From NCBI GenBank assembly GCA_963796105.1, contig CAWCKJ010000004.1:320001-384000 (forward strand): 64,000 bases of DNA, written 5' to 3'. Of this stretch, positions 29,103 through 60,900 are shown one piece after another (the first letter of the stretch is position 1; each line of letters starts with the position of its first letter). Made by a program: the position numbers and the translations under genes. This stretch comes from a candidate division FCPU426 bacterium. GTDB taxonomy: Bacteria > Oederibacteriota > Muellerivitia > Muellerivitales > Muellerivitaceae. The notes below the pieces were generated by a model. That model saw nothing but the letters and a program-made list of their open reading frames with translations. It ran no database searches and was not told where the DNA came from.

Positions 29103-29132
29103 AAAAAAAGGCGGCCCCAAAAAGGGCCGCCT
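29103..29132 (-). terminator. Intrinsic terminator closing the porin/lipoprotein operon
   Basis: AGGCGGCCC-6 nt-GGGCCGCCT followed by a T run on the minus strand. Confidence 0.85.
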
Positions 29133-29147
29133 AACCATAAAAATTAA

Positions 29148-30071
29148 TCAATAAAAGGAAACGTTGTCCACCCAAAAATCCGTATAGTCGTTTCCACATC
29201 CACCGTTATCGCCAAATTTCCACATTAAAAATAAGGCTTCAGTCTCGAAGGTTCCACTGCCCGGGCAGGGAAGTGGAGGACCGGTGGTATAGGTGATATT
29301 ACCGTTACAAGGAGTCGTTAATGAACTAATGCTCAGGGCACCCCATCCAGCGGTTTGCAACTGTGAAAATAGGAAGGTCACTGGTTGCCACCCCGCGCCA
29401 ACAAGCGAACTGGGCAAAGCTGTTCCATTGCCCCAAAAGTAGTCGTAACAATTACCGCCACCTCCGCCAAAAGGAGGGGGGCAGATACCACCGGGATCGT
29501 TGGTGGGAGGAGTCTGCTGGGCGACCCCGATTGCAAACATCCTTTGGTAATTGGGGTCTTGAGTGGAAGTGCCGAGAATGACTCCATCATCAGGTAGAAC
29601 GTTGATGTTGAAACTGACCCCTTGAAAGGGCGTCAGGTCGTATTTGTAATGTTTCACTGGATTGTTGCTCAAGAAAGCGTAAAGAAAGAAGGCGGGATAA
29701 GTAGATGAACCTGCGCCTGTCGCACAATAGTCGTATTGCGCCCCAGAAAGATGAACCGCGTATGCACTCCCGTCCCCAGGGTTCGTTTCCAAGATTTTGG
29801 GCGTTAAACTGCCGTTGATCATATTGGTGAGTCCAGGCGCTCCCCCGTAAGTGATCTGCTGGAAATAACCGTTATCAAAACCCTTCAGCGAAGGGTTCAT
29901 AACCAAAGAACCGTTTGTAAAATTGCTGATCACGTTATTGGGCTGGGGTGTGGCTACCGCTGCGGCCAAGGGAGGAATTTTATAATTACACCCCTGTGAA
30001 AGCCACAATATCCCCGCGGTAAAAACCGCGAAGAACAAAACCAACAAGGTTCTAAACCAAATACCTTTCAT
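29148..30071 (-). CDS. Lipoprotein with CBM11/CIA30-like galactose-binding-fold domain
   Basis: Lipobox-like LSQGC; ISNF...YDLTPFQGVSF...GGIC..CYDYF...FWVDNVSFY. Confidence 0.65.
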   Translation of the reverse strand: MKGIWFRTLLVLFFAVFTAGILWLSQGCNYKIPPLAAAVATPQPNNVISNFTNGSLVMNPSLKGFDNGYFQQITYGGAPGLTNMINGSLTPKILETNPGDGSAYAVHLSGAQYDYCATGAGSSTYPAFFLYAFLSNNPVKHYKYDLTPFQGVSFNINVLPDDGVILGTSTQDPNYQRMFAIGVAQQTPPTNDPGGICPPPFGGGGGNCYDYFWGNGTALPSSLVGAGWQPVTFLFSQLQTAGWGALSISSLTTPCNGNITYTTGPPLPCPGSGTFETEALFLMWKFGDNGGCGNDYTDFWVDNVSFY

Positions 30072-30110
30072 GCCTACCTCCCGGAGCCAAGCCTTATGAC
30101 GGGCTTTCCG

Positions 30111-31025
30111 TTACTTGAAGAACTCGATATCATCCACCCAAAAATCAAAATAGGATATTCCGGGTTGATTATTCCGGCCCTCATCCCATTCCAGGAAAAA
30201 TATCTGCTGAAGATTGACCCCGCTCAAAGTGGGCGGGTTCGTGATGACGCCAGGCTGCAATTGGTGAAGATCCGTGAATTTATAGCTGAATTGTTTCCAC
30301 TGTCCGCCAGTACCACTGCTGAAATCCGCCGCGAACGAATCGTCACAAAGCCTCGGCCCGCCCATGCACCCACCTCCCCCAACCGGGCTTGTGGTCTGGT
30401 AAACCGGGACGCTGAAAAAACGGTAAAGAGTGGTGTCGTCGCTTCCCACCTTTAAGTGGTATTTGACCCCATTAAAAAAGCTGGCGTCATAAAACCCACC
30501 GCCTTCCATCTGGGCTTGTAGCTTCACCGAGTCGAAAGAGGAATAATCGCCCGGGTCCAGGAGAGCTCCTGTGACGTGGAAGGCATAATCGCTGGACGAA
30601 CCGCTCGGTCCTGGAGTGTCCAACCAAGGTGCCATGGGGATCGTCAGAATGGATGATCCGCCGAGGGTAACGGTGGTATTTTGCACAGTCGGCGGGTTTG
30701 AGGAGATAGCAATATAAGCCGACCAATCGTTTACCGCTGTAACAGAGCCGCCGGCCGTTTTCAACTTGTAGGTGGGAGGATTACTTGCCTCAAAAAGATC
30801 CGGGTTGACGGTAACCGCATCGGAATTGAAATTTGCCACCGTGCTCCAATCTAAAACTGATTGAGGTGTCGGATATGTTCCGTAAGATGGTACGCTGTTT
30901 TTACAACCCAAAAACCCAGCGATTAATGGAATCAAAACAAATGCCAACCCGACTGCCATCCGGCAGGATAGAACTTTCCGAAGTGGGTTTCGGATTTCCC
31001 CCGTCAGCTTAAAATTGGATTTCAT
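30111..31025 (-). CDS. Lipoprotein with CBM11/CIA30-like domain
   Basis: Lipobox FLGC; VANF...YDASFFNGVKY...GGGC..CDDSF...FWVDDIEFF. Confidence 0.65.
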   Translation of the reverse strand: MKSNFKLTGEIRNPLRKVLSCRMAVGLAFVLIPLIAGFLGCKNSVPSYGTYPTPQSVLDWSTVANFNSDAVTVNPDLFEASNPPTYKLKTAGGSVTAVNDWSAYIAISSNPPTVQNTTVTLGGSSILTIPMAPWLDTPGPSGSSSDYAFHVTGALLDPGDYSSFDSVKLQAQMEGGGFYDASFFNGVKYHLKVGSDDTTLYRFFSVPVYQTTSPVGGGGCMGGPRLCDDSFAADFSSGTGGQWKQFSYKFTDLHQLQPGVITNPPTLSGVNLQQIFFLEWDEGRNNQPGISYFDFWVDDIEFFK

Positions 31026-33408
31026 AAGTCAACTCCAAAAACTCGTTATGCAAGGTTCCCGTGTTAGGGGTTCCAACGTAGGGTACAACGTTACCGCTGG
31101 TAAAACCATAATCCGCGAAAAACCTCGTATTCCGGCTTGTCCGGATCTCGCTAGAAAGCTGGACGCTCTGGTTGGACCCATTGACACTGAATGGTTGGTA
31201 ATTTCCCAAATCGGAATTGTCGAAGAGAAAAGGATAACGGGCCAAAAAGGTTTGGTGGGAAACCCCCGAGGAATCAGTGTAAGCATAACCAGCTTCTGTT
31301 CCATTGACCGCTTGATTCCCGTAGGAGGCGGAAACATCCCACCCATTCAAAATCCCTATTTTCACCCCACCCAAAATCCAAGTATTGGTTAAGGTTCCGA
31401 TCGAACTAGTTGTTTTTTCGTATCGAACGTTGGTCCCCAGAACTAAATCCCGATCAAATCCGATGACGGGACCTAAGTTTAAAGAAGGCCCGAAATTAAC
31501 GTAAGTAAAATTCCGGACCGGAACGGGGTCAAACGCTGCGGCGTCTACCGGCACATAACCCGTACCCGCGCTGTCAACAACAAGGTTACCACTGATTTCC
31601 TGGACAAAATAGACCGAGCCCAAAATATTCAAAGCGTCTTTTTCCAGGGCCTTCAAGTCCATTTCCATTCCGCCTCCCTGCCTGTTGGGAGTGGACAATC
31701 CATAGGGAAAGGTATTGTCCTGTGTCCGATCGTAAAAACTGTAGATTTCATCTGGCCGGGGCACATCGTTGAGGAAAAACCGGCTTCGCAAGGCGGGTGT
31801 AAAGAGCTCCGGGGTCGGCAAGAAACCGGATGCTATAGGCGCAGCTGCCGAGGGAACTGAAATGTTATCCTGCCGAGTTTGTGCCATAGGTGAGTAAAAA
31901 TAAGGGCCGACATTCAGGTAGTTGAACGATACTTTTGAGCGCCCCATCCGTAAATAGGGCCCGCCCAATACAGCGTAATCTTGCGTATTCTTTGATGAAT
32001 CCATTTTATCATCCACATAGGTGACGGAAGCCCACTCCCAGACAATCCCGATGGATGTATCTCCCCCGATCCCGGCGTCAAGGGCGGGCTTGAAGCTTGA
32101 AATCCTGTACTGGTGGCCCCAGGTATCGGAGTTATAGGGGGAATAGGGTGCGCCCGGTTTGTTAGTGTTCAAGGGATCGTCCAGTAAGAGTCCATATGCG
32201 TCCAATGTTAACTGGAGGGAAGTTCCGCCACCTAGGTAACACCGTTTCAACTTGATTTCGCCGTTGGTTCCTACAACCCAACCTGTGTAATTGTCGAACC
32301 CGTAGAAAACCCCTGTCTTATTATTATCGTCAAACCCGTTCCGAATCATGTCCGCCATTAAGGAAACCTTGAACTGGTCCATAAGTTCCGAATCGGGCCA
32401 CAACAGGGCGGTGCCAATGCGAGCGCCCCGGAAAGGCCAGTCCGGCTCTTGGTTGAGGTAATTTTCATATTTATAAGTATCGTCGGCGCGCTTGTACATC
32501 TCGGGCATGTAACGAAGATCAAGGTTGTTCCTGTTCCAAAGGGTCAAAGGTGTATAGGATTCCTCAAAATCCCCCACGGTCGCGGAAAACCACGAAGGGT
32601 TGAATTCCATGGTTGCTCTGCGGAACATCAACCAATCAATGCCAGGATAGTTGTTCGACTCAAAGGCAGTTTGATACCTTAAAACCGCGTCCCAACGCAC
32701 CTGTTTGGAAACCACCCCTATGGGTTGAAAATCGAGGTAACCGAAACCTTCCCGCTCGGCCGAGCCTAAGGAAGAATAAGCCGGATCACCCCAGTATTGC
32801 CTTGAAATTCCAAAAGCTCTTCCCAACCCATGCCAAGTAATGGTGGGGTATTCTGTGATTCCCTGGAGACGCTTCCACAGGGCATATTGCGAGTTCTCCA
32901 CGGCGGCTTCGTGGTCTTCCACCGTTTTTACTTCTCCTTTTACTCGAGTAAGTTCGTATTGGTATGCCTCCTGCAAGCTATGAAGGCTTTTCAACGCCTG
33001 GGCCAACACCACCGCCTCATCCGGCGTGGGCAAAGGTGTGGGAGCTGCGGTTTTGGCGGGAACAGCCGCAACGGGGGTAGCAACGGATGGAGCAGTGGCA
33101 GGGGCGGGTGTTGTAACAATCGTATCCAAGGGAGCTGGCAAGTCCAAATCAGAATCAGCCACAACGATCTCGTTGTATTTATCCTGGGCTCTCAAAATAA
33201 GATTGACAACTTCAAAGCGCGTCAAAGGGGCAATGGCAGAACCTGACGCCAGCAAACCGGCTTGTTCCAATTGCTGGAGGCGCATATAGGTCGAGTCATT
33301 GGCCGGGACAACCGTGAATAGGCTGTCGCCTGCCAAGGCAGTACTTTTCACCTGCGCCAAGATAAAGCCCAGGAATGAAAAGAGAATGATTTTAGAAATG
33401 AGCTTCAT
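31009..33408 (-). CDS. Outer-membrane protein: SLH-like domain, Pro/Ala linker, coiled coil, beta-barrel (OmpM-like)
   Basis: Likely start MKLISKII at 33408; FTVVP...L..AGLL...LTRFEV SLH pattern; LQEAYQYELTRVKGEVKTVE coil; ends LTYEIQF. Confidence 0.7.
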   Translation of the reverse strand: MKLISKIILFSFLGFILAQVKSTALAGDSLFTVVPANDSTYMRLQQLEQAGLLASGSAIAPLTRFEVVNLILRAQDKYNEIVVADSDLDLPAPLDTIVTTPAPATAPSVATPVAAVPAKTAAPTPLPTPDEAVVLAQALKSLHSLQEAYQYELTRVKGEVKTVEDHEAAVENSQYALWKRLQGITEYPTITWHGLGRAFGISRQYWGDPAYSSLGSAEREGFGYLDFQPIGVVSKQVRWDAVLRYQTAFESNNYPGIDWLMFRRATMEFNPSWFSATVGDFEESYTPLTLWNRNNLDLRYMPEMYKRADDTYKYENYLNQEPDWPFRGARIGTALLWPDSELMDQFKVSLMADMIRNGFDDNNKTGVFYGFDNYTGWVVGTNGEIKLKRCYLGGGTSLQLTLDAYGLLLDDPLNTNKPGAPYSPYNSDTWGHQYRISSFKPALDAGIGGDTSIGIVWEWASVTYVDDKMDSSKNTQDYAVLGGPYLRMGRSKVSFNYLNVGPYFYSPMAQTRQDNISVPSAAAPIASGFLPTPELFTPALRSRFFLNDVPRPDEIYSFYDRTQDNTFPYGLSTPNRQGGGMEMDLKALEKDALNILGSVYFVQEISGNLVVDSAGTGYVPVDAAAFDPVPVRNFTYVNFGPSLNLGPVIGFDRDLVLGTNVRYEKTTSSIGTLTNTWILGGVKIGILNGWDVSASYGNQAVNGTEAGYAYTDSSGVSHQTFLARYPFLFDNSDLGNYQPFSVNGSNQSVQLSSEIRTSRNTRFFADYGFTSGNVVPYVGTPNTGTLHNEFLELTYEIQF

Positions 33409-35665
33409 ACGTAAGTCTCCAAATTTGATCCCTGCGGTCAAAAGCAGGGTTGTCGGTCCACTTGTAATTTACGAAAAACCAATCGCACCGGAGGCCGATC
33501 TTGTCGCTGATCGGATAGAGACCACCCAGCGCAATAGTGTCGCGGGTGATGTTCATGGCCTGTAAGGAGTACTGCCCCGAAGGATCCAGGTAGAAGGCGT
33601 AGGACGCCAAGGTAGGGGGGCTTCCTCCTCCCAGGACAAATTCGCTCCCGGTGGACTGGGCCTGCTCGAATGCCACAGACCAAACCATGCGGGAAATAAA
33701 ATGGACGGGAATGTTGAAATCCACGGCTCCAATCATGGTATTCACTGTGAAGGGGCTCCCCCCCATTCCAAGATCCGTGGTTTGGTGTTTGTAATCTAGC
33801 TGCAGGTCGTAGGTCTTCCCTTTCATGTCAATGGCCTTCGCGATGTCCAGAGTAAGGGCTCCCTCATAGCCTCCGAAAACACGGGCGTTTGTCATTCCGT
33901 CTACCGCTGTAACGCCGGTTCCAGCCGGGTTTAACACGTAATTGGGTTGTATTTCCTGGGCATTCAGCAAGTAGGAAGCTTGTGGTTTCAGCCATTTTTT
34001 CTCGCCGAATTCGCCCCAAAAACCGAGCACAATTCCCTTGCGGTTCGGGGACGCATCTCCATATGGAAGGAAATTCTCGGATAGACGGTCATAAGGGGCG
34101 TAATAGGGCCGGTTAACCCCTTGGAACAGGAACCCATTCAGGTAACCCGGCAAGGCGTCATCAACACCGTTCATGGTAGTGCTCCAATAACCTTGCGAAC
34201 CCGCAGCAGGGGTATAGCGGTTGGTCTGGGCCCCGGGAGAATAAAAATTCGGTCCATTGTTGATGTACTTGCCGGTGAAATGGGCCCCTTGGATATCCAA
34301 GGAAGCGTTTCCTAATATGGCCCAATCCTGAAATTCCCTCGCCGTATCATATAAGTCATCGTAATAACGGCTGACAGCTCCTTCGGCGTTTCCAATCAAA
34401 TCAGCCTTGTCGCTGAAGACAAATGAAACTGTGCCGCTAAGACTTCCGATTTGGTATTCCTTCGGAAAGGTGTCTGGGTAATACTGGTTGGGATCGGTGT
34501 TGGAGCCCAGGTAAGGGGTATTGGCTGTATTGACATCGTCAGTAAGGATCAGGCCCGTCCCCTTTACCGTCAAGAAATCATTGAATAAGCCCAAAAAACC
34601 CTGGGCGCCGCCGTAATAACTGCTGAAATTGAAACCGCCGCCATTCATCTGGGTTCCCACCATGGCCTGCAGCCCGGCGCCACTCAGGAACATCTCCTTA
34701 GGGTTGTCAAATGAGGCGGAAGCCTGGAATCCCCTCATATGCCAATCGGGCCCATGGTCGACATAAGCCAATTCTTCCGTATCCTTGCGGGTGCGGTAAA
34801 AGGAAGTGGGGTCGATAAAGGTATAAACAGGAATATTATAGTTCCATAGCGTGAGGGGGGTATAACTCTTGAAAAAGTCACCGGCTGTGAAATTCGCGAA
34901 ATCGTTGTAATCGGTCAGGGAAATCCACCTGAGTTGGTAGGCAGGCTCGAATGGATCCTGGTAATACATACCCATGGAACGCCACAGCCTCATGCGAGCG
35001 TCAAATAATACGGTGGGAATGGGGATACTTTTCAAATCCCACTCCATGAACATGGCGGCGTTATATTCCATGGCCGGATAAATCGCGTTGGTGCCGAAAC
35101 CCCGGTAATCATAGACAAAACCCCTGGAAAATCCGCCCAAATCCGTTCCCGTGCGTTTCAGATATTCTTTTTGGAGAGCGGCAAAAACCTCGTTGCGGAC
35201 CTTGGAATCCACAATTCGTTGCTCCAGCTTGTCCACGTCTACTCCCATAGCGGTTAATTCCTTCCGGAATTCCGACACCAAGTCCGTCATGCTTTTGCTA
35301 GGAAGGGTTGATTGCGGGGTAGCTGTGGAATCCATTCCCGTTAAAGGCGGAGGCGCAGCCAGGGCAGAGGGAAGTTCCGGCGGCAAGGCTGGCTCAGATG
35401 CGGAAGGAGGGGAGGGAAGATCGAGATCAGCTTGAGCCAAATACTTTTGGGAGGCTTGGGCCGTCAATTGAGCGACCTCTAGGTTTGTCAATTGGTCGAT
35501 AGGTTTGCCCGGAGTCGGGGCCAAGCCGGATGACACCAAATCATCCACGCCCAGGTTGATCCAGGAATCCCGGATGTTCGTGGCCAAACGTCCATGATCG
35601 GCCCTTGCCGGAAATGCCGGGCTCAAGAGAATTACCCCTATAAGAATTTGAAGGCTTTTTTTCAT
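33392..35665 (-). CDS. Outer-membrane protein: SLH-like domain, Pro linker, coiled coil, beta-barrel (OmpM-like)
   Basis: Likely start MKKSLQIL at 35665; W...VDDLVSSGL...LTNLEVA; LVSEFRKELTAMGVDVDKLEQRI stalk; ends LTYEAHF. Confidence 0.72.
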   Translation of the reverse strand: MKKSLQILIGVILLSPAFPARADHGRLATNIRDSWINLGVDDLVSSGLAPTPGKPIDQLTNLEVAQLTAQASQKYLAQADLDLPSPPSASEPALPPELPSALAAPPPLTGMDSTATPQSTLPSKSMTDLVSEFRKELTAMGVDVDKLEQRIVDSKVRNEVFAALQKEYLKRTGTDLGGFSRGFVYDYRGFGTNAIYPAMEYNAAMFMEWDLKSIPIPTVLFDARMRLWRSMGMYYQDPFEPAYQLRWISLTDYNDFANFTAGDFFKSYTPLTLWNYNIPVYTFIDPTSFYRTRKDTEELAYVDHGPDWHMRGFQASASFDNPKEMFLSGAGLQAMVGTQMNGGGFNFSSYYGGAQGFLGLFNDFLTVKGTGLILTDDVNTANTPYLGSNTDPNQYYPDTFPKEYQIGSLSGTVSFVFSDKADLIGNAEGAVSRYYDDLYDTAREFQDWAILGNASLDIQGAHFTGKYINNGPNFYSPGAQTNRYTPAAGSQGYWSTTMNGVDDALPGYLNGFLFQGVNRPYYAPYDRLSENFLPYGDASPNRKGIVLGFWGEFGEKKWLKPQASYLLNAQEIQPNYVLNPAGTGVTAVDGMTNARVFGGYEGALTLDIAKAIDMKGKTYDLQLDYKHQTTDLGMGGSPFTVNTMIGAVDFNIPVHFISRMVWSVAFEQAQSTGSEFVLGGGSPPTLASYAFYLDPSGQYSLQAMNITRDTIALGGLYPISDKIGLRCDWFFVNYKWTDNPAFDRRDQIWRLTYEAHF

Positions 35666-35697
35666 TTCTAGTTTATCCAAAAATCCTTTTCCGAAGA

Positions 35698-38600
35698 TTA
35701 GAACAAAAACTTAACTTTGCAAAAATACTGGTTTCCGGAATAATTGTTCGCTGGAATGTAATTGTCATGGAATTCAAGGTACTTATAACGGAATTCCAAC
35801 TTGGCCCCACCCCAAGGGATGTCATAGGCAAGCCCTAATCCATAATCGTTGGTTCGATAATCCACCTGGGGGTAGGTATATTGTGATTTCCAGGTTTCAA
35901 CTCCGATGTCACCCATCAAATCCACGTTCTTGACCACGTTAATCATGATGGAACCATCGTAGACCAACTGTTCAAAGAGGTTGGAAAAACTGGTGGAAAG
36001 GGTGTAAGGAGCCAAATTGTTGGACAAGGGCGAGTTGTTGTTAACGGGGAGATTTGTAACGGAACTGGAAGCGACACCTGAAACCTGATTATCGGTGATG
36101 AAAAAGAACCCATCCACGGGAGAGGTCAAACCAAGCCATTTATCGATTTTGAGTTTGGCGGTCAAGGTAATGTAGTTGTAGGTTTTGAGGTCGTCAATAT
36201 TGGCATACATATTGTTTCCATTTGCATATTTTGCGGGATCTTGACCCGAGGTGGCAGGAGACAAACTGTATGTTCCGCCGTTGTTATAAATGGGCAAAAT
36301 GAGCGGAATCCTCTCACTGGTCATTCTAAATTGGTAGCGTACATCATCGTTGACAATGTCCGCATCGTTTCTCATGGCTTCGATGTTGTTGATGTAGGTC
36401 TGACGCAGGGGATTCACGTTGGGCGCATAGTTTCCCCAAAGGTCCAACCCCCATAAGCCCTCGTCGTCCGGGTAGTAAAAACTAAGCAATTGGGTGGGTT
36501 CGACCTCGTAATAACCTTCCTGGCCCTGTTCGGCCACATATTCCTTCTTTTGGGACACGTCAAAGTTGATGATAAAGGTATCCAGGAAACTAGGCCAACT
36601 CTTCATCCAGGTCTGTTCCCTGCCGTCCCATCCCAAGTTGACCCGCCAACCGTATCGGTCGGTCTGAAGGTTGTCCACCTCCCCGATGGCCCCATAAACG
36701 TCCTGGAAATCGCTGGGATTGAAATAAAGGCCGTGGTGGAAGAAATTAAATCCGCTCATGGTAGCCTTGCTCATGAAGTCGGCGTAATTCTCACTGAGGC
36801 CGAAGTAATAAAGGGTCAGGGGATAAAAAGCCATGGAGGCCTGACCCGCGGGCGCCTCAACTGCGTTGGAATCATTTTGGAGTTGGCCTGATTGTACATA
36901 GGCGGGGCCGGGATAGACGCTTCCCGTATAAAAATGCGAGAACCCGCCCTCGAAATCAAACAAAACCGGGGCAAGGTTCAAATGGATGTCGGCTGAGTAA
37001 TCTTTCATGTCCAGCTGGGGCATATTGGGCAGGTTGCTGACCCCAAAATTGTCATTTACCCATTCCGCGGAAATCGAGGCCCTTAAAAGACTGCCGAACA
37101 AAGGTTGGTCAATCTTGGCCCCTTCCTCCCAACGAAGGCTTTGGCTGGTTGTTTCGCCCATACGTCCCACCAGGAACCACATCCGACCGCCCGGAGCCAG
37201 CCATGGGACAGTTCTCCCTACCGCGTAAATCCCGTCAAAAACCCGGTCGCTGGTGGATTGAACATTGCCTGCCGTGGGGGAATAACTGGGCACGTAGCTG
37301 ATGTTGCTCATGAAGTCATCCCAGTTCTTCGCGTTTTTATCATCATTGAAGCTCTTGATGTTCCAGGGGTTCTCGAACCGCTTGAGGGAATTGTTGGCAT
37401 AGCCGCGACTAAAATCGCCGTAGGTGGTGTCCGGTTGGTAGGCTTCCACAGCGAAGGTGGTGTCCCATTTACCTAAGTCCCCGTAAAGATCCAAAGTACA
37501 GCTGGGATTACCGATATAAAGGGAAACAGGTCCTGTGCCGTAGACACCCCATAAGTCATAGTTGGCGGATGCGTTGTCATAGGGCAAGATTCCGCCTACT
37601 CCGAGGGAAAGGGCTCCCTTCCCCCCCAGGTCCGAGTACATCCCGCACCAGATTTCCTCCAAAGCCTTTGAGACGCTCTCGGTGGCGATACCAGAAACGT
37701 TTAAGTTTTCAAACCGAGTGTTGATATTCGTGTTGAAATTCGGGATGCCCGCCGACCTATCCGCCTTTTTCCAAATAGCGTCCACTTCGTCCTGAACCGT
37801 TTTGAGGTTATCTAACTCGTCTTCCTGGGCTTTAATCCGGGGATCATCCAAGCTTAGCCGCGAGCGAAGAAAAACAGTTTCCAAATGAAGTTGTTTCAAA
37901 AGGTCCTCTATTTCCTTCCTTAAGGCGCCAGTAGCTTCCGGGAGGTTTACTGCGGGTGTGGGATTCGGGGTGACTATAGGCGAGGCGACAGGAGTAATGA
38001 CCGGAGAAGGAGCCGATGGGGTCGCGAGAGTTGGCGCAGGGGTGTTCGCGGGCAAAGGCAAAGAAGGTTCTGGTAAAGGCGGAGCGGTCAGGGGCGTATT
38101 TTCAGGCAAAGGAAGCGCTGGCGCAGGAAGTTCCGGAGCCGGCTGAACTGGAGCAGGGGTGTTCGCAGGCAACGGCAAAGAAGATTCTGGTAAAGGTGGG
38201 GCGGCAAGCGGTGCCTCCGGCATTGGCAAAGAAGGCTCAGGTAAAGGCGGGGCTGCCAATGGCGTGTTTTCCGGAAGTGGAAGCGCGGACGGGGGAAGTT
38301 CCGGAACCGATTGAACAGGCGCGGGCGTAACCGCAGGCAACGGCAGGGAAGACTCCGGTAAAGCCGGCGCGGCCAGAGGAGCATTTTCCGGCAAAGGCGG
38401 AGCGGCCAGGGGCGTATTCACCGATAGAGGAAGAGCCGGCGCTGGTTGTGTTGAAGCAGGCAATTCCGGAGCGGAATTGAGGGGCGGCAATTGGACAGGA
38501 GTTTCCAAAGGGGATGGCACGGGAGTTAACGGGGTCGGACTCGGCAACGCTAATTCAGGAGCTTCAATCTTAGCGGCGGCCTTCTCAGTGTAAAAAGCCA

Positions 38601-38814
38601 ACTCCAACCGGGTGACTATTTTCCCCTGATCCAAAACCGCTTGATCAGCGGGATCTAAAAGGCCTAAATCCGCGAGCTTCTTCACCCTTTGGTAAAGGAG
38701 TTGGTCGGGGCCGACATTTTCCATAGGATCAGCGTTAAGCAGGCTGACTCCGCCGTTCCAAGGAAAAAAGGTTAGTAAGGAAACAATAAAATATAATTTG
38801 AGGCGAAATTTCAA
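35698..38814 (-). CDS. Outer-membrane protein: SLH-like domain, long Pro-rich repeat, coiled coil, beta-barrel
   Basis: YQRVKKLADLGLL...VTRLELA; ~200-aa Pro-rich region; LRKEIEDLLKQL coil; ends KVKFLF. Confidence 0.68.
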   Translation of the reverse strand: MKFRLKLYFIVSLLTFFPWNGGVSLLNADPMENVGPDQLLYQRVKKLADLGLLDPADQAVLDQGKIVTRLELAFYTEKAAAKIEAPELALPSPTPLTPVPSPLETPVQLPPLNSAPELPASTQPAPALPLSVNTPLAAPPLPENAPLAAPALPESSLPLPAVTPAPVQSVPELPPSALPLPENTPLAAPPLPEPSLPMPEAPLAAPPLPESSLPLPANTPAPVQPAPELPAPALPLPENTPLTAPPLPEPSLPLPANTPAPTLATPSAPSPVITPVASPIVTPNPTPAVNLPEATGALRKEIEDLLKQLHLETVFLRSRLSLDDPRIKAQEDELDNLKTVQDEVDAIWKKADRSAGIPNFNTNINTRFENLNVSGIATESVSKALEEIWCGMYSDLGGKGALSLGVGGILPYDNASANYDLWGVYGTGPVSLYIGNPSCTLDLYGDLGKWDTTFAVEAYQPDTTYGDFSRGYANNSLKRFENPWNIKSFNDDKNAKNWDDFMSNISYVPSYSPTAGNVQSTSDRVFDGIYAVGRTVPWLAPGGRMWFLVGRMGETTSQSLRWEEGAKIDQPLFGSLLRASISAEWVNDNFGVSNLPNMPQLDMKDYSADIHLNLAPVLFDFEGGFSHFYTGSVYPGPAYVQSGQLQNDSNAVEAPAGQASMAFYPLTLYYFGLSENYADFMSKATMSGFNFFHHGLYFNPSDFQDVYGAIGEVDNLQTDRYGWRVNLGWDGREQTWMKSWPSFLDTFIINFDVSQKKEYVAEQGQEGYYEVEPTQLLSFYYPDDEGLWGLDLWGNYAPNVNPLRQTYINNIEAMRNDADIVNDDVRYQFRMTSERIPLILPIYNNGGTYSLSPATSGQDPAKYANGNNMYANIDDLKTYNYITLTAKLKIDKWLGLTSPVDGFFFITDNQVSGVASSSVTNLPVNNNSPLSNNLAPYTLSTSFSNLFEQLVYDGSIMINVVKNVDLMGDIGVETWKSQYTYPQVDYRTNDYGLGLAYDIPWGGAKLEFRYKYLEFHDNYIPANNYSGNQYFCKVKFLF
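37940..38550 (-). repeat. Intragenic Pro-rich repeats
   Basis: Recurrent PLAAPPLPE(S/P)SLPLP and PAPVQxxPELP units in the translation. Confidence 0.85.
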
Positions 38815-38822
38815 AAATCGGC

Positions 38823-38882
38823 TCCTGAAATCATTCTAACTTTTAAAACCTTTCCTGAAATCATTCTAACTTTTAAAACCTT
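38823..38882. repeat. Perfect 30-bp tandem duplication
   Basis: TCCTGAAATCATTCTAACTTTTAAAACCTT twice. Confidence 0.95.
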
Positions 38883-38895
38883 ATAGAAGGCTCTA

Positions 38896-39669
38896 TCAAA
38901 AAAACTCAACTTCATCGATCCAATAATCGATGGCATAGGTCCCTGCGGCATTATCAGCGGAATGAGCCCACTTCAAGTAAATAAATTCTTTTAAATGCTC
39001 AGTTAATTCGGGCGGAGTAACAGGCGAACCCCAACCCTGAAGCCGAGTCAAATCGGAGAAATTCAAGACATACAAGGTCCAATCGGCGATAGGTTTTAAA
39101 TTAGCGCCGTAATGGTTGTAACACGCATTTACGCAAATGCCGCCATCAGAGGAAGGAAGTGTGGGAGCCGTGGCGATATTAAACCGGCGTTTAAGAGCTT
39201 GGTCGGCTGTCGGACATTTGTAATAAAACTGGATTCCAGAGAAATTACTGGCATCGTACAGGTCTTTCCCTTTGAAATTAAATTGCAGATCAAATTCGGG
39301 ATAAGATGCGTCCCCCTTGTCCGTAAGGCTTCCATATACATGGGCCGCCATCTTGGTGCCGTTAGCGCCTCCCTTAACCACGAAATCACTATTGACCGCG
39401 TTTCCGGCCCAGGTCAAGGTGGACCATTCACCCGCTCCATCAAGATACAGTTTGGGGTTCCCGCTCTTGGATCCATTATCAAAATTGGAAATAACGGAAG
39501 CTTCCTTTGGAACGTTCACCTTAACACTGTTTTTTTCAGGGTTCGCCAAGCCGCGGGCCAAACTAGCGTTCTTTGAGCCTTCATTCACGAATACAGCCCC
39601 ACATCCAGCCAAAAGAAAAAGCCCCAGAACCCCAAATAAAGACAAAAGCTTGGACGAGGCCATAAACAT
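38896..39669 (-). CDS. Lipoprotein with CBM11/CIA30-like domain
   Basis: Lipobox LAGC; ISNFD...YDASNFSGIQF...GGIC..CYNHY...YWIDEVEFF. Confidence 0.68.
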   Translation of the reverse strand: MFMASSKLLSLFGVLGLFLLAGCGAVFVNEGSKNASLARGLANPEKNSVKVNVPKEASVISNFDNGSKSGNPKLYLDGAGEWSTLTWAGNAVNSDFVVKGGANGTKMAAHVYGSLTDKGDASYPEFDLQFNFKGKDLYDASNFSGIQFYYKCPTADQALKRRFNIATAPTLPSSDGGICVNACYNHYGANLKPIADWTLYVLNFSDLTRLQGWGSPVTPPELTEHLKEFIYLKWAHSADNAAGTYAIDYWIDEVEFF

Positions 39670-40034
39670 CCTTCACGAAAAGATGGGTAAGGAAAACGCC
39701 GGTATTTTACTAAAAAGCCCTGAAAAGCTGGAATCTTTTTTTAATAAAATTTAAAAATCAGGTGTTTTGGGAATTTATTGTTTAAAACCCTTTTCATTGG
39801 GTTTATTACCATTAAACAAGCCCAGGGTTGAATTTTACTTTTTTATTTATATTTAACGACGGGAAACAAAGCTTCAAACTCGCAAATATAGCTTCAATTC
39901 AACCAAAGTAGCGGTTCTTTAAACTCCAAATTTGAAATAAGAATGGGAGGGCATACCCTGTCCATAATTCATGAACTCTTTCAGAGTTATAAGATCTAGA
40001 GCCATGATCACTTGAATTTTCCAGTTCATTCCTT

Positions 40035-43000
40035 TTATGGCGTATCCAATTTCTTCACGGCGGTCCCTAATGGCAACCCCTTGACGTAAACAAAATCAAA
40101 AACCCGCAGGGGATCTCCCTGCTTTTCGACCATGACCGCGGCCATGTAGCGGTTGTCCCTCTCCGGATGGGGCTCGCGCGGCATATTCAAGAAAAGGCTT
40201 TTCACTTTTACCATATTCCCCGCGGGAAGCTCAAACGGCCCCAGGGTCGCCAGCTCATCCAGGTAATTTTTCGAGGTGTCTATCTGGTGGAGAACCACCC
40301 CTTTCAAGTCCTCGGGCGAATGGTTGCGGATTTCCACGCTTAACGGAACCGGCACCCCAACGGAAGCTTCCTTGGGGGCGGTGACAGTCACGTCAATGGG
40401 TAATAGCCCTTCGGCTTGTTGTAACGTCGTAAAGGCTTTTCCTCCCGCAATGGTCCATTCCATGGTGGTGTAAGGACCCCGGATTCCCCAAACCAACCGG
40501 TAAAGGTCGTGCCAAAACATTCCTAGATTGGCGTTCTCCGGAAACCAGTTCTGGAAAGTCTCGTTTTCGCGGTTATAAAGTTCCAGCGGGCCGGGAGGTT
40601 CAAGGGTTTTCTGGACCCAATTGAAGTCCACCATCTCTCCCATGGCGTACATGCCGTTTTCCCTGGATAAATAAACAGGCCAATGCCGTTTCATGGCCTC
40701 AATATGTTCTCTCGTCCCCTCGTAGAGCATGATATGGTTAAAGGCCACCCCAGCGTCAATGAACATGGCTGGATCTTGGCCGTGTTGATGTCCCATTTCC
40801 CATCCCAAGGTGAACGTGAACACCGGCTTGGTAACCTTTGCCTCATCCAAGATGCTTTTCAGGGCCAGCGACACCTTGTGGGCCCTCCACCACTCGAACA
40901 AAGCCACCACCTGGGGATTTTCCTTTAATTCCACGGTCCTGGCCAGCCAGTGAATCCGATCTTGCTTTGACATAGACCAAAAATCCATGGGGCCAGGGAC
41001 GTTCAAATCCCTGACGAACTCATCCACCATCTCATACCCGGCAAAACCTGTCCTGACATAATCCAAACCTATGATATCAACCAGGGGTTCCTGATCCATT
41101 TTCCTTAGGAAATCGATGATATCCTTGCGGCGTTTTTTATCATCCAGGGAGATGAACCTAGTCTGGATGACCTCGTCGCTGTCCGGATCGTATCCCAGCG
41201 AGAAGTCGTAAGGCGCTTGCTTCCAAGCGTCGCCTTCCACTTTAAAGGTGGTCATGTACCCAGCGAACTGCAGGCCTTTCGCGTGGGCGGCCCTCGCGTA
41301 ACGGCGGCCCGTTTCCATTTCGAGGCGGTTGTAAGGAAAATCCGCCTGCACGAAATGATCCCAAATGGAGGTTTGTCCCATCAAGTCGCAGTATAAATTT
41401 GCCCCCATGAATTTCGCCCAATCAATGGCGTTGGAGGTGCTGGAGGATCCGTTTCCATCCAAAGGCGGCACGGCGCCGTTTACCAATTGCTTCCCCCCCT
41501 CCATCGTAAGCGCGGCATAGCCGGGATAAAGCCCGTGGGGTTTCAAGTGCGCGATGGTAAACGCGGATTCAAAAGTCCGGGGAACCTTCCATTGCGGGGA
41601 AGTAATGATCACCTCGGCGATGTAAGTTCCCGCCTTGGGGTTGTAGGGAATCGGCCAATTGCCGAGAAGCTTCTTCCCCTCCTGATCCTTCCTTAAATAC
41701 AACTTGGACCTGCCATCCACCATGTTAACCGGCTCCCCGTCGCGGAACACCTCCACGGATGCGTGGATATCGGAGAAATAAGTCGAATCCTTTGGATTAA
41801 CCCTCACCTCAAAAGGCACCATTTCGTAGCGAAAAAAAGTGCGAGTGGGCATAACGGCGATGGCGTCTGGAATCATCTGGGAAACAGAGGGTGCTTGGAG
41901 GACGTTCTTGGCCCTGGAGGGGGAAAGGGTGGCCTTGGCCCAGTAGGCGCCAACACTTAATAAAAGAACAATTAAAACAGCCCAGCCGATCAGGGATCGC
42001 TCAACAAAAGCCTGGTAAATCCCTTTCCAGGATTCCCAACGCGGTGCCGGCCGCAGCAAGGGCAAAAACTCGGGGGAAGGCCATTCCAAATTCGGCTTCT
42101 GGGTGTTTTCAGGAACATCAACAATATCTTTCTCATGGCTCTCCTCATGGCCGATCCCAGCCCTGGAAAGTGGCGTTGAAACCCTCCCCGAAGCCAATGG
42201 GCTGGGGATCTCATCGGCCATTTCCGGATTGAGTTGAATGGCATTTTCCTCCTCCCATTCTTCCTGGAATGGGGTTTCAACCCATTCCGTTAGGACCCGT
42301 TTCGTTTCTGAATAGGCTTCTTCCAAATCCTTTGTTTTTTTCTCTGCCGGGAAAGAATGGGCCTTATCTATTGCTGGAGACTTCCTTGAAAAATAACTCT
42401 TGCGCCACTGGTTCATATTCCAAATCAAACCAACGATCGATCGAAACAGGAACGGGAATGATGAGAAAAACCATCGAACTGCTATCAGGGAATAACGGAA
42501 GAGGAAACTAAGACCCGTCAGGATTTTTTTAACCGCCCAGGGAATAAACGAAAAAAACGGCCAAATCCAATCCTTCCCTTTTCCCGAAAGCTTTTCCAGG
42601 ATCAAACCCACACGCGGCAAATATTTTCCAGCCTCCTTAATCACACTTTTAATATTGAGAACGGTGGGCTCGGTCTTTGGCAAGCGGAAAGGCTCCAGGT
42701 TTTTCGGGGATAAAGTGCTGATATCCCCAAGCGGGACTGATTTTTCCCGGGTGAGCCTCACCACCGTTTCCACGTGGTAGGTCTGGGGGAACATGTCCAG
42801 CGGCTGCGCCCAGTCCGCCCTGTAGCCGTGTTTGGTCAAAAGGGAAAGGTCCCGGGCCAGGGTGGAAGGGTCGCAGGAAACATAGACCAATCTTTCGGGA
42901 TGGAAAGCCGTCAAATGCGCCAGAAACTCCGGCAGGACTCCCTTGCGGGGAGGATCCATGATCACAGCGTCCAGTTGCGTCATTCCCTTATCCCGCAAGC

Positions 43001-44177
43001 CCGTCAGGACCCGGCCGACGTCGCCTTCCAGGAAATCCAGGTTGTCCCGCTGATTCAATTGCGCGTTGAATTTCGCGTCCTCGACCGCGGGAGCTGATTC
43101 TTCGATGCCGACCACGTAGTCCGCTTTGTTGGATACAGCCAGGGCTAGGGTCCCAATCCCGCAATAGAGGTCCAGGAGCATCTCCCATTTCTTCTTATGC
43201 TCCGGGTCGCCGAGCGCCTCCCTGACCACGGTATGGAGGATATCCGCCTGGGGTGTGTTCACCTGGAGGAAGGACATCAGGGACACCCTCAGTCTGAGAT
43301 CGTCGATCACCTCGAAACAGTGGTCCCTTCCGGCCAAGAGGCGCGTCGTGGTCCCGAAAACGGAATTGGTCCGGGAGGGATTGATGTTTTGAAGCACGCC
43401 CACCAATCCCGGGACTTCCTCCAAAAGCTCCGCCGAGATCCTGGGGAGGATTCGGTCCAAGGTTTCTAAGATCAGGGCCGGCTTTTGAAGGCGCTCCTCG
43501 GGGGTTTCCGAGCGGGTGATGAAGGACAACAGCATTTCCCCTGTTTTTACCCCGTGCCGGACGGCCAAGTGCCTCAGGAAACCCGTGTGTTTCTTCTCCT
43601 GGTACGGCGTCAAACCTGAGCGGTCGATTTTCCTTAGGACTTTTTGGATCAAGTCGTTGACGGGATCCCCCTGGATGGGGCAGGTCTGGTAAGGAACGAG
43701 GTGATGGGAACGGGGTTCGTAAATTCCCGAGACAAAATGTCCTTCCCGCATCGAGAGAACCGGAAGGGCCTTGTTGCGGTAAGCGTAGGGGCTGGGCGAG
43801 GGTAGGCAGGGCTGAACCAGGACGTTTGAAAGGTGGCCGATTCTTTGGAAGGCGTCCACAACAAATTGGCGCTTGGCTTGGAGCTGACGGGAATATTGCA
43901 GGTGCTGCCATTGGCATCCCCCGCACTCCTCGAATACGGAACAGGCTGGAACCACGCGGTCCGGTGATCTTTTCAGGAAGTTAAGAATCTCCCCCGTGGC
44001 GTAATGATCCTTTACTTGGTTGATCTTTACGGCCACCCTCTCGCCGGGAAGGCCGCCCGGGACAAATACGGCAAAATCACGGTAACGCCCTACTGAATCC
44101 CCCCCGAAGGCGAGGGAGTGGATGTCGATCTCGATGATGTCGCCGTGGTGTACGGGTTTGACGAATTTGGTTTCCAT
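40035..44177 (-). CDS. rlmD: 23S rRNA m5U methyltransferase (RlmD/TrmA family) fused through a TM helix to an extracytoplasmic GH-like domain
   Basis: TRAM domain, C-x5-CGGC 4Fe-4S motif, LDLYCGIG, DPPRKG, YVSCDPSTLARD, DMFPQTYHVE. Then ~900 extra aa including a TM helix (LIGWAVLIVLLLSVGAYW) and IIGLDYVR. Confidence 0.85.
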   Translation of the reverse strand: METKFVKPVHHGDIIEIDIHSLAFGGDSVGRYRDFAVFVPGGLPGERVAVKINQVKDHYATGEILNFLKRSPDRVVPACSVFEECGGCQWQHLQYSRQLQAKRQFVVDAFQRIGHLSNVLVQPCLPSPSPYAYRNKALPVLSMREGHFVSGIYEPRSHHLVPYQTCPIQGDPVNDLIQKVLRKIDRSGLTPYQEKKHTGFLRHLAVRHGVKTGEMLLSFITRSETPEERLQKPALILETLDRILPRISAELLEEVPGLVGVLQNINPSRTNSVFGTTTRLLAGRDHCFEVIDDLRLRVSLMSFLQVNTPQADILHTVVREALGDPEHKKKWEMLLDLYCGIGTLALAVSNKADYVVGIEESAPAVEDAKFNAQLNQRDNLDFLEGDVGRVLTGLRDKGMTQLDAVIMDPPRKGVLPEFLAHLTAFHPERLVYVSCDPSTLARDLSLLTKHGYRADWAQPLDMFPQTYHVETVVRLTREKSVPLGDISTLSPKNLEPFRLPKTEPTVLNIKSVIKEAGKYLPRVGLILEKLSGKGKDWIWPFFSFIPWAVKKILTGLSFLFRYSLIAVRWFFSSFPFLFRSIVGLIWNMNQWRKSYFSRKSPAIDKAHSFPAEKKTKDLEEAYSETKRVLTEWVETPFQEEWEEENAIQLNPEMADEIPSPLASGRVSTPLSRAGIGHEESHEKDIVDVPENTQKPNLEWPSPEFLPLLRPAPRWESWKGIYQAFVERSLIGWAVLIVLLLSVGAYWAKATLSPSRAKNVLQAPSVSQMIPDAIAVMPTRTFFRYEMVPFEVRVNPKDSTYFSDIHASVEVFRDGEPVNMVDGRSKLYLRKDQEGKKLLGNWPIPYNPKAGTYIAEVIITSPQWKVPRTFESAFTIAHLKPHGLYPGYAALTMEGGKQLVNGAVPPLDGNGSSSTSNAIDWAKFMGANLYCDLMGQTSIWDHFVQADFPYNRLEMETGRRYARAAHAKGLQFAGYMTTFKVEGDAWKQAPYDFSLGYDPDSDEVIQTRFISLDDKKRRKDIIDFLRKMDQEPLVDIIGLDYVRTGFAGYEMVDEFVRDLNVPGPMDFWSMSKQDRIHWLARTVELKENPQVVALFEWWRAHKVSLALKSILDEAKVTKPVFTFTLGWEMGHQHGQDPAMFIDAGVAFNHIMLYEGTREHIEAMKRHWPVYLSRENGMYAMGEMVDFNWVQKTLEPPGPLELYNRENETFQNWFPENANLGMFWHDLYRLVWGIRGPYTTMEWTIAGGKAFTTLQQAEGLLPIDVTVTAPKEASVGVPVPLSVEIRNHSPEDLKGVVLHQIDTSKNYLDELATLGPFELPAGNMVKVKSLFLNMPREPHPERDNRYMAAVMVEKQGDPLRVFDFVYVKGLPLGTAVKKLDTP

Positions 44178-44573: not shown

Positions 44574-45266
44574 TCAATGCTTGACGGCGGGGGCGGCCTT
44601 GGGCGCGGTGGCGTCGCCCTCCAACCGCAAATAGTCGAGATAAACCACGACGGGCTCCGTGGCTCCCGTAAGATCCACCCAGAACTTGATAGACCGGATG
44701 TTGCTTAAATCCAGGCGGGCTTGGATCATCTTGTCCAAGGGAACATCAATGTTGGTGACTTTCTTGGGCGTCAAGGGCCCAGTGATATCGGAAAAAACAA
44801 ACCCGTGGGAATCAGCTACTTCCATATGATAAATCACAGGATGATCCTGGGGATTGAAGACATCCAGTTTCAAATCGGCGTATTCCTGCCACTCATAAAC
44901 CTTCAATTGGGTAACGGAATTGGTGTCGAGGGACATTTGGGGGCGCCATTCAACGCCGGGAGTGGGGGTGGGGAAAAACTGGCTTTGCAGGAGAAAGGTG
45001 GCTTTCGCGCAAAGCTTGCCGTGGGTCTGGTTTTCCTTGGCGGGTTCTATTTTGACGTAGCCCCCGGTCATCCAATCGAAATCGTCATTGGGATACTCGA
45101 AATCCGTGATCACCATGCTTTTGGTCAGGTTTTTGTGATGTTTGAAAATACCCCCCAAACCCAAGCCGGTCACAAGGGCATATCCCAAAGCCAGTAAAAA
45201 AACGATTCCCAGAATCCAAAGAAATGCGCGCATTTGCTTTCCTATTTTTCCAAGAAATTCAATCAA
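44574..45266 (-). CDS. Membrane-anchored protein with putative carbohydrate-binding (galactose-binding-like) domain
   Basis: N-terminal TM; ITDFE...WQEYADLKLDVFNP...LDLSNIRSIKF...YLDYLRL pattern. Confidence 0.55.
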   Translation of the reverse strand: MIEFLGKIGKQMRAFLWILGIVFLLALGYALVTGLGLGGIFKHHKNLTKSMVITDFEYPNDDFDWMTGGYVKIEPAKENQTHGKLCAKATFLLQSQFFPTPTPGVEWRPQMSLDTNSVTQLKVYEWQEYADLKLDVFNPQDHPVIYHMEVADSHGFVFSDITGPLTPKKVTNIDVPLDKMIQARLDLSNIRSIKFWVDLTGATEPVVVYLDYLRLEGDATAPKAAPAVKH

Positions 45267-58424: not shown

Positions 58425-58663
58425 GGAACAGCCTCCATTTTGGGGCGGGAAATAAAGCACGATAGGGACCTGCGACTTAAAACTTACCACTTTTTAAGCA
58501 AAAATGATAAATAACAAATATAGTTCTTGTCCGAATTTGCGGATGATTGTTCTTGAGGCCGGTACGTCCAGATCTTCTAAAAAATTATTATCCGACCAAA
58601 TGGAAAAGCAAATGATAAAAGCGGTATGGAATGGCTAAAGGACATAAAGTGATGAATTATCAC

Positions 58664-59462
58664 TACAGCAACTAGGTACCCCCAAACCTGCAACCAGGCA
58701 CCCTGGTTCTGCTACTAGGTACCGCCAATTCTTCTACTAGGTTCGCTTATGCCCACTGGGCCCACCGGCGTCCGCGGGCAGGGCCTACCGGACCTGCGGG
58801 CAGGGCTACCGACACCTGCGGGCAGGATTGCCGAAAATGTGGGCGTGTTATCCTCCCATGACGGTAGGTGACCACGTCCAGGCCGACGGTGGCTCCCGAC
58901 CTCATGAATACAGGGCCCCCAAACCGTGCCTACAGGGCTTCCGGCCCAGCTATACGGAACTGGGTCATCGGCTTACCGAATACTGGGTTGTACTGGGTTG
59001 GGGCTTCCAATACTGGGTTACGGGTTTTCCAAATACTGGGTTGTACTGGGTTGGGGCCTCCAATACTGGGTTGCGGGTTTTCCGAATACTGGGTTGTACT
59101 GGGTTGGGGCCTCCAATACTGGGTTGCGGGTTTTCCAAATACTGGGTTGTACTGGGTTGGGGCTTCCAATACTGGGTTGCGGGTTTTCCGAATACTGGGT
59201 TGTACTGGGTTGGGGCCTCCAATACTGGGTTGCGGGTTTTCCGAATACTGGGTTGTACTGGGTTGGGGCCTCCAATACTGGGTTGCGTGTTTCCAAATAC
59301 TAGGTTGTACTGGGTTGGGACCTCCAATACTGGGTACGGCGGAAAACCCGTCCACGTACGGCGGGAACCCGACCCCAGATGGCGGGAAACCCCGTCCCCT
59401 GCGGGCATGACCACCAGCGTCTGTGGGCAGGGCCACCAGTACCTGCGGGCAGGACTTTCGGC
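58664..59462. repeat. Array B: composite ~22-bp-period repeat region related to array A
   Basis: CTACTAGG-type units at 58664-58742; CCTGCGGGCAGG-type units at 58770-58826 and 59397-59462; further 22-bp units (GTACGGCGG...) at 59334-59396. Confidence 0.85.
58976..59335. repeat. 53-bp tandem repeat, ~6.8 copies
   Basis: Consensus CC(G/A)AATACTGGGTTGTACTGGGTTGGGGC(C/T)TCCAATACTGGGTTGCGGGTTTT; unit starts 58976, 59029, 59082, 59135, 59188, 59241, 59293. Confidence 0.97.
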
Positions 59463-59522
59463 CCATGGCCAATGAGCCTGGTTTTCGGCCATTTTCAAGG
59501 CCTCAATTTGCGGCCTGGAAAT

Positions 59523-59555
59523 AAAAAAGCCCGGGAGGAAATCCCCCGGGCTTTT
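59523..59555. terminator. Intrinsic (bidirectional-looking) terminator
   Basis: AAAAAAGCCCGGG-loop-CCCGGGCTTTT downstream of the Sel1-OmpA gene. Confidence 0.85.
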
Positions 59556-59582
59556 GAAAAACAAAAAACCTTGATTTTAAGC

Positions 59583-60887: not shown

Positions 60888-60900
60888 GAAACTCTCCGTT

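Follow-up and report, generated by a model that had tools for sequence, protein, structure and literature searches.

In the 64,000-nucleotide window analysed here, a stretch of one contig from a candidate division FCPU426 bacterium, a minus-strand operon of six co-oriented open reading frames (ORFs) encodes three predicted outer-membrane β-barrel proteins (BarA, BarB and BarC) and three lipoproteins, in the transcription order LpA-BarA-BarB-BarC-LpB-LpC. Our preferred reading, to which we give a probability of about 0.6, is that the three barrels, which lack a plug and stand on likely wall-binding stalks with surface-layer homology (SLH) heads, form one heterotrimer through which fragments of cellulose and xyloglucan would diffuse without TonB, aided by the lipoproteins. 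Function is assigned here from homology and gene context: the barrels match those of the Cytophaga chu_1276-1280 locus, and related cassettes lie beside glycan-degrading enzymes. The six genes are as follows.

38896..39669, minus strand: LpA, 257 aa, lipoprotein with Cys23
35698..38814, minus strand: BarA, 1038 aa, CHU_1276-position (A-type) family
33392..35680, minus strand: BarB, 762 aa, CHU_1277-position (B-type) family, likely start ATG 35665
31009..33441, minus strand: BarC, 810 aa, B-type, full-length paralogue of BarB, likely start ATG 33408
30111..31025, minus strand: LpB, 304 aa, lipoprotein, LpA paralogue by phmmer, likely carbohydrate-binding-module (CBM)-like
29148..30071, minus strand: LpC, 307 aa, lipoprotein, divergent LpA paralogue, Cys-rich

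None of the six proteins matched Pfam at E 0.1, and NCBIfam gave only a sub-threshold match to a coil. A profile search covering 1.84 billion representative proteins returned 452 proteins at E up to 0.001, many of them about 570 aa long and without SLH; a follow-up search listed 108 proteins, the nine taxon-named ones all from Bacteroidota, with the Atlas in agreement. Among the metagenome loci of this Bacteroidota-type family (the best 80 of 92), a second barrel-like gene lies upstream of the B barrel in 57 of the 58 loci with that position visible, and a lipoprotein-type gene lies downstream in 65/65. The second downstream gene in loci L114, L120, L124 and L127 encodes a protein of 374-376 aa that has W89, F92, F180, Y253, F256 and F343 of CHU_1279 (375 aa) at the exact positions and also shares Q48 and E204, while E212 and Q375 differ. 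The other tested candidates for CHU_1279 (11 in all) gave one with 6/6 at an offset of -1, one with five and five with two. In both loci scanned, the gene after the CHU_1279-like gene encodes a glycoside hydrolase (GH) of family GH9. The residue fingerprint and the GH9 gene thus identify L114-type loci as orthologues of chu_1276-1280, and we defined the CHU_1276 and CHU_1277 families by position in these fingerprint-bearing loci.

Aligned with hhalign, BarB and BarC match the CHU_1277-position family at 100% (E 7e-42 and 9e-39, respectively), and BarA matches the CHU_1276-position family at 96% (E 3e-9, 399 columns; its reversed controls <1%). The A proteins of phylum-mates bridge the latter match, at 98.9% to BarA and 99.9% to the CHU_1276-position family. 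All 21 reversed-profile controls stayed at or below 13.7%. The division into A and B types is not clean: BarA also matches the CHU_1277-position family (90.7%, last 138 columns) and BarB the CHU_1276-position family (94.3%), as would be expected within one barrel superfamily, and the two Cytophaga-position families match each other at 99.1%. From these alignments the cassette barrels are very probably homologous to the Cytophaga pair. According to the accessible part of the report on that locus, chu_1276, chu_1277 and chu_1279 mutants do not grow on cellulose, chu_1276 and chu_1279 mutants grow poorly at low glucose, CHU_1279 binds cellulose via a CBM11-like domain although the presence of the protein outweighs its binding, and orthologues of chu_1276-1280 are known from two close relatives (PMC12016534). 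CHU_1277 has also been cited for cello-oligosaccharide assimilation (PMC5553014), and the accessible parts of PMC6247017, PMC9581022 and PMC13543919 hold nothing further on these barrels.

The genome (96.8% complete) has four such cassettes, all ordered LpA-A-B-C. As a single-protein query BarB matches in 42 of the phylum's 99 genomes, including all 30 other genomes of the family, and a B-type profile matches in 68/99. We collected 58 cassettes of this order from regions fetched around the listed strong matches, so that counts include kin that are not independent. A stands directly before B in 54 of the 55 cassettes with the upstream gene in view, C directly after B in 54/54, and an LpA-profile gene before A in 47/49, bearing out the co-occurrence of barrels and lipoproteins across genomes that the preliminary description had made a check on itself. 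Half of the cassettes (29/58) sit between rlmD and lepA, as in the window; we call these primary and the rest accessory. In related genomes the gene order is kept for LpA-A-B-C, whereas the full lipoprotein set is rare in accessory cassettes. One upstream and two downstream LpA-profile lipoproteins occur in 18/23 primary versus 2/19 accessory cassettes with both ends visible, a count that overlooks the unrelated small lipoproteins present in many accessory cassettes. The proposed 3:3 match of barrels to lipoproteins is thus typical of the primary copy; the three lipoproteins are themselves non-equivalent, and we rejected the ratio as a general rule. The conserved core is lipoprotein-A-B-C. Split barrel frames in L082, L090 and L081, with frameshifts or stops, reflect decay or assembly error.

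Other families of the phylum carry A and B only, followed by lipoproteins. In these two-barrel loci 19/19 aligned A genes lie upstream of a B gene, and 10/19 A and 8/21 B proteins match the SLH profiles. Locus L198 (genome G074), from another family, has A and two B-type genes with long branches that apparently fall outside the B/C group, a possible independent route to three barrels. One phylum-mate protein carries the NCBI label Ca. Goldbacteria; a member of Goldbacteria has been reported to degrade cellulose, and sequences of FCPU426 have been assigned to that phylum (PMC7031533). In other lineages, the B-type homologues P0289, P0314, P0325 and P0328 are 600-710 aa long, lack SLH and begin with a short helix.

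BarA consists of a signal peptide, an SLH-like head (~29-85), a Pro-rich linker (~86-292; 34% Pro across residues 85-290), a long helix (296-354) and a barrel of about 22 strands with a large surface insertion; BarB has an SLH-like head, a short Pro linker, a coil and a barrel of about 22 strands in which strands 5 and 13 are each followed by a long conserved loop. The Pro-rich spacer first described for every barrel is long in BarA only. In the BarA paralogues of accessory cassettes at L033:16185-18986 and L035:11654-14485, tetratricopeptide repeats replace the Pro-rich linker, and the L031 copy is nearly linker-free. The genome contains no match to Pfam SLH, so the SLH of the barrels is divergent. 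A degenerate SLH motif in each barrel was nonetheless correctly recognised: the profiles of BarA, BarB and BarC match the N-terminal region of OmpM1 of V. parvula (E 1e-5, 9e-5 and 8e-4), and our own SLH profiles match 12 barrels of the genome and no other protein in it. The A, B and C stalks have three distinct conserved consensus sequences. A coiled-coil sequence that had been attributed to all of them, LVSEFRKELTAMGVDVDKLEQRI, is found in BarB only, while the shorter TRLE/TNLE/TRFE motif is in all three, as is the terminal Phe. BarB and BarC align over 723 columns (hhalign 100%) and are sister groups with an SH-like support of 98 (FastTree, 47 rows, midpoint root only); BarA matches them directly only in the stalk.

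AlphaFold2, run on alignments of 103 sequences for BarA and 149 for BarB, gave a mean predicted local distance difference test score (pLDDT) of 85 and a predicted template-modelling score (pTM) of 0.83 for BarA residues 289-1038, and a pLDDT of 90 and pTM of 0.80 for mature BarB. By count of DSSP elements, both models have 22 long strands after a helical stretch of 45-60 residues, in line with the expectation that the C-terminal regions are barrels. Helices, with no TonB-type plug, precede each barrel, and the BarB model also displays two SLH helices and the disordered Pro linker. Barrel closure and loop positions are inferred from these models. Three motifs reported to be common to two barrels (GDFxxSYTPLTLWN, GPxFYSPxAQT and PYGxxxPNRxG) are indeed shared by BarB and BarC only; in the model they lie where the loop after strand 5 begins and at either end of the loop, 70 residues long, that follows strand 13. 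OprD-type channels are constricted by loops of this kind. Fold searches returned generic barrels only (best Z 13.3 and 14.6, root-mean-square deviation (rmsd) 7-8 Å). The longest structural alignments are to 22-strand TonB-type barrels (5t3r_D, for example, with 413 residues aligned, rmsd 4.8 Å and Z 12.9), and OmpM1 (8bym) aligns over ~258 residues at Z 12-13 and rmsd 6.6-7.0 Å, tied with unrelated porins.

The lipoproteins are less readily placed. LpA combines a conserved peptide next to its lipid anchor (consensus CGAVFxNxGSK) with a single domain that bears a conserved pair of Cys residues, and LpB and LpC match it with phmmer E-values of 2e-19 and 4e-5. Their shared motifs largely survive scrutiny: GGxC and, with WVD relaxed to W[VI]D, the second short motif occur in all three, and YD[AL]xxFxG[VI]xF is exact in LpA and LpC, with only a variant in LpB. 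The LpA domain is likely CBM11/CIA30-like: matches to CBM11 in the Protein Data Bank are weak (E 0.25), its Atlas neighbours include CBM30 (0.91), and its profile matches proteins that themselves bear weak CBM_11/CIA30 matches. A secreted GH8 enzyme contains three copies of the domain, and several large proteins of the genome also carry it, which supports a role as a binding module. The first lipoprotein at L086:13558-14271 resembles LpA in its N-terminal peptide only, which is joined there to a different domain, hinting that this peptide may be a docking element.

Two of the genome's own four copies lie beside GH44 and GH2 genes, and one of those two also beside GH29 and AraC genes. For a wider view we scanned 56 hand-picked genes of 117 long ones (36/64 at accessory loci, 20/53 at two-barrel loci). 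Neighbours at accessory loci were GH44 (seven), GH31 (two), GH29, GH5, GH2 and four sugar-binding proteins, with AraC and LacI regulators also present; those at two-barrel loci were GH9 (six), GH8, GH2, GH31, GH116 and four BNR/sortilin proteins, which we take to be GH74-like. The two-barrel loci of phylum-mates have GH9, GH8 and GH44 neighbours, and some cassettes adjoin inner-membrane sugar-binding proteins and an SSF symporter. Bacteroidota-type pair loci (L099, L105, L107, L112, L132; L149-L169) stand beside GH18, or GH2-like, GH3 and GH16 genes. From such neighbourhoods the barrel-pair module seems to serve several glycans. Paralogous copies in glycan loci, together with the homology to the Cytophaga barrels, uphold the original suggestion of a glycan system, and we hold a role in glycan uptake to be probable. 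A second part of that suggestion falls away: the LacI gene and the secreted hydrolase nearby have no link to the operon that we could find. The LacI gene lies 5.8 kb upstream, with the RlmD-fusion gene and a 230-aa gene intervening, and none of the other cassette regions has a homologue of the hydrolase; we rejected the connection. LacI homologues occur at six other loci, five of them accessory (within flanks of ~10 kb; others may lie outside).

In the mechanism that we propose, the stalk would be built from three chains, as in OmpM, each supplying a single SLH repeat and a single helix. A, B and C are paralogues that are always inherited together, each with one distinct SLH repeat and one helix; one heterotrimer is therefore the simplest arrangement, and by comparison with OmpM we favour it by a small margin over the other arrangements. 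The two-gene loci would then form A-B2, from which A-B-C would derive through duplication of B. In B and C, the pair of long conserved loops would fold inwards and narrow the lumen to a selective constriction. Given the missing plug and conserved loops of an inward type, facilitated diffusion is the most likely mode of entry: oligosaccharides would reach the periplasm aided by the lipoprotein binding modules, and independence of TonB is likely. By analogy with a proposal for CHU_1279, the lipoproteins may keep glycan close to the pore and lend the complex stability; whether they cap the barrels directly we rate at even odds. The window copy would be constitutive and would also tether the outer membrane, while accessory copies would serve xyloglucan-type loci. 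Taken as a whole, a hetero-oligomeric, wall-anchored, TonB-independent glycan importer with three 22-strand barrels, one three-chain SLH stalk and lipoprotein caps is a tentative picture, somewhat short of an even chance.

Several observations weigh against this reading. The window copy has no adjacent glycoside hydrolase. Pfam CBM families match none of 45 members of the LpA family, and hhalign finds no detectable homology between LpA and the CHU_1279 family (1%); the cassette is therefore a variant and not a member of the chu_1276-1280 locus proper. SLH heads are found in 0/42 and 0/61 Bacteroidota homologues, so the stalk is dispensable for a chu_1276-1280-type system. The identity of the CHU_1276 and CHU_1277 families rests on orthologous loci, not on the type sequences of C. 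hutchinsonii. The models have no close solved structure (best Z 13-15, rmsd 4-8 Å, unrelated barrels tied), which does not show a new fold. csaB was not found in the genome; five OmpA/Pal-like domains, all below the Pal cut-off, offer other possible tethers, and 12 TonB plug matches elsewhere in the genome mean that energised uptake exists in the cell.

On one rival reading, the window copy is chiefly an envelope tether of the OmpM type and a general porin, with glycan uptake left to the accessory copies. The fixed rlmD-lepA position without a hydrolase, the presence of BarB throughout the family, the restriction of SLH matches to these barrels and the precedent of OmpM, which acts both as tether and as general channel, all suit such a role. 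Yet the primary copy retains the B-type loop motifs found in the SLH-less barrels of Bacteroidota as well as three lipoproteins with a domain seen again in glycan enzymes, and the OmpA-like proteins could serve as tethers; we consider this explanation unlikely, though credible. Doubt may also attach to the joint complex itself. A, B and C could each form a substrate-specific channel of its own, homotrimeric or monomeric, and be linked only by co-expression, as the characterised SLH-coil-barrel proteins are all homotrimers in the accessible parts of the reports on them (bioRxiv 2023.08.14.552755, PMC9388160) and as the two-barrel loci misfit a 1:1:1 trimer. The joint duplication of the three barrel genes in each of the genome's four copies, the invariable place of C after B, the divergence of the stalks to three conserved sequences and the A gene with two B-type genes at L198 argue against such independence, which we find unlikely and slightly less plausible than the tether.

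The barrels might, finally, not be diffusion channels at all: they could instead serve as a surface platform, or an export channel, for the display or organisation of enzymes that degrade glycans, or act as energised importers. The large surface insertion of BarA and the structural alignments to TonB-dependent barrels lend themselves to this explanation, but neither model has a plug domain and Pfam detects none, the low-glucose growth defects described in the accessible account of the Cytophaga mutants point to uptake (PMC12016534), and inner-membrane sugar-binding proteins and an SSF symporter stand beside some cassettes. We regard it as improbable, and we retain the diffusion heterotrimer as the preferred reading.

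The six closely packed, co-oriented genes with a closing terminator, as first described, were confirmed by the ORFs and by a hairpin. In order along the operon, the open-frame gaps are 85, 21, -46, -13 and 43 nt. An RlmD-fusion gene lies upstream of the operon and lepA downstream, with the following features at its ends.

29109..29132, minus strand: intrinsic-terminator-like hairpin that ends the operon ahead of lepA
39670..40034, minus strand: AT-rich intergenic stretch upstream of LpA, likely the promoter region

The hairpin (29132-29109) has 10 pairs, 8 of them G-C, and a U-run, and it ranked at the top of a terminator scan that gave 17 sites overall versus 26 in shuffles. It folds at -22.9 kcal/mol (z -2.5; 5/200 shuffles equally good). 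A sigma-70 scan of the region upstream of LpA gave no enrichment above shuffles. Within the operon, the LpA-BarA gap holds an exact 30-bp tandem duplication (38823-38882), and at 31009-31025 the following gene starts with an ATG set within the conserved Tyr-Glu codons of the barrel's C-terminal signal. The B-C and C-lipoprotein junctions have the same -13 overlap in most cassettes, from translational coupling or as an artefact of start calling. The upstream gene (40035-44177, minus strand) joins an RlmD-type tRNA/rRNA methyltransferase to a likely membrane segment and a ~650-aa domain without a Pfam match; its C-terminal part is present in 26 of the searched cassette regions, upstream of primary cassettes. 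A membrane-anchored 230-aa protein without a Pfam match (44574-45266, minus strand) has homologues in six other cassette regions. Further away, two secreted multidomain proteins (46983-49553 and 12943-15426, both minus strand) have C-terminal tails with weak matches to type IX secretion system (T9SS)-like or FlgD-like domains, suggesting that a phylum other than Bacteroidota has a C-terminal sorting domain. A higher-GC stretch holds two autotransporters with PATR repeats (53712-58490 and 59583-63984), a Sel1-OmpA protein (58828-59564) and a tandem-repeat region between the autotransporters.

The same barrel pair thus exists far outside Bacteroidota, and stalks that normally force trimers suggest a concrete A-B2 or A-B-C architecture for the whole system. 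If true, the proposal would fix the architecture of a widespread alternative to SusC/SusD, the cellulose-uptake proteins of Cytophaga included, and would make a single complex responsible for both polysaccharide feeding and tethering of the outer membrane, as a rare OmpM-like tether of heteromeric type. The cassette may also serve as a marker for glycan loci overlooked by SusC/D-based screens. The SusC/SusD utilisome of Bacteroidota polysaccharide utilisation loci resembles the cassette in barrel size, in its surface lipoproteins and in the enzymes and regulators near accessory copies. Unlike SusC, the cassette barrels have a periplasmic SLH stalk in place of a plug: the plug family PF07715 has 12 matches in the genome and none within the four cassettes, and PF07980 (SusD) has none in the genome. 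On these grounds we rejected SusC/SusD membership, as the preliminary description had done.

That description had also likened the SLH-coil-barrel layout to OmpM and to the cyanobacterial SomA/B porins, a parallel that stands for the architecture but stops at the N-terminal stalk. SomA/SomB (the iron uptake porin NF033921) shares the layout, but its only match is to a 52-residue coil in BarC, at 16.9 bits against a cut-off of 100, and membership was rejected. OmpM (V. parvula OmpM1, PDB 8bys, 8bym and 8bz2) and Deinococcus SlpA likewise combine SLH, a coiled coil and a barrel with a terminal Phe. The OmpM1 barrel has 16 strands; the cassette barrels have about 22, and nothing beyond the SLH/stalk region matches OmpM in sequence. 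By the accessible part of its description, the SlpA barrel has 28-30 strands (PMC9388160). In the case of OmpM, the corresponding account has the SLH trimer supplied by three chains and the protein working as both tether and general channel (bioRxiv 2023.08.14.552755). OmpM and SlpA are homotrimers, whereas the cassette has three non-equivalent, co-inherited paralogues and lipoproteins.

The closest likeness is to the chu_1276-1280 locus, which has homologous A-type and B-type barrels in identical order, followed by lipoproteins with CBM-like domains, and no SusD; as there, related cassettes adjoin GH9 enzymes. The cassette differs in the SLH head and coil of its barrels, in a third barrel (C, sister to B) and a lipoprotein upstream of A, in single-domain lipoproteins that lack the detectable homology to CHU_1279 noted above, and in the window copy's want of an adjacent endoglucanase. 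In the accessible text on the Cytophaga locus, the C-domain of CHU_1279 is described as CBM11-like and a complex of the chu_1276-1280 products appears as speculation only (PMC12016534). Listings of the open-access literature yielded no paper on an SLH-stalked three-barrel cassette. The barrel pair is already known from Cytophaga; what appears to be new here is its SLH-stalked, three-barrel form.

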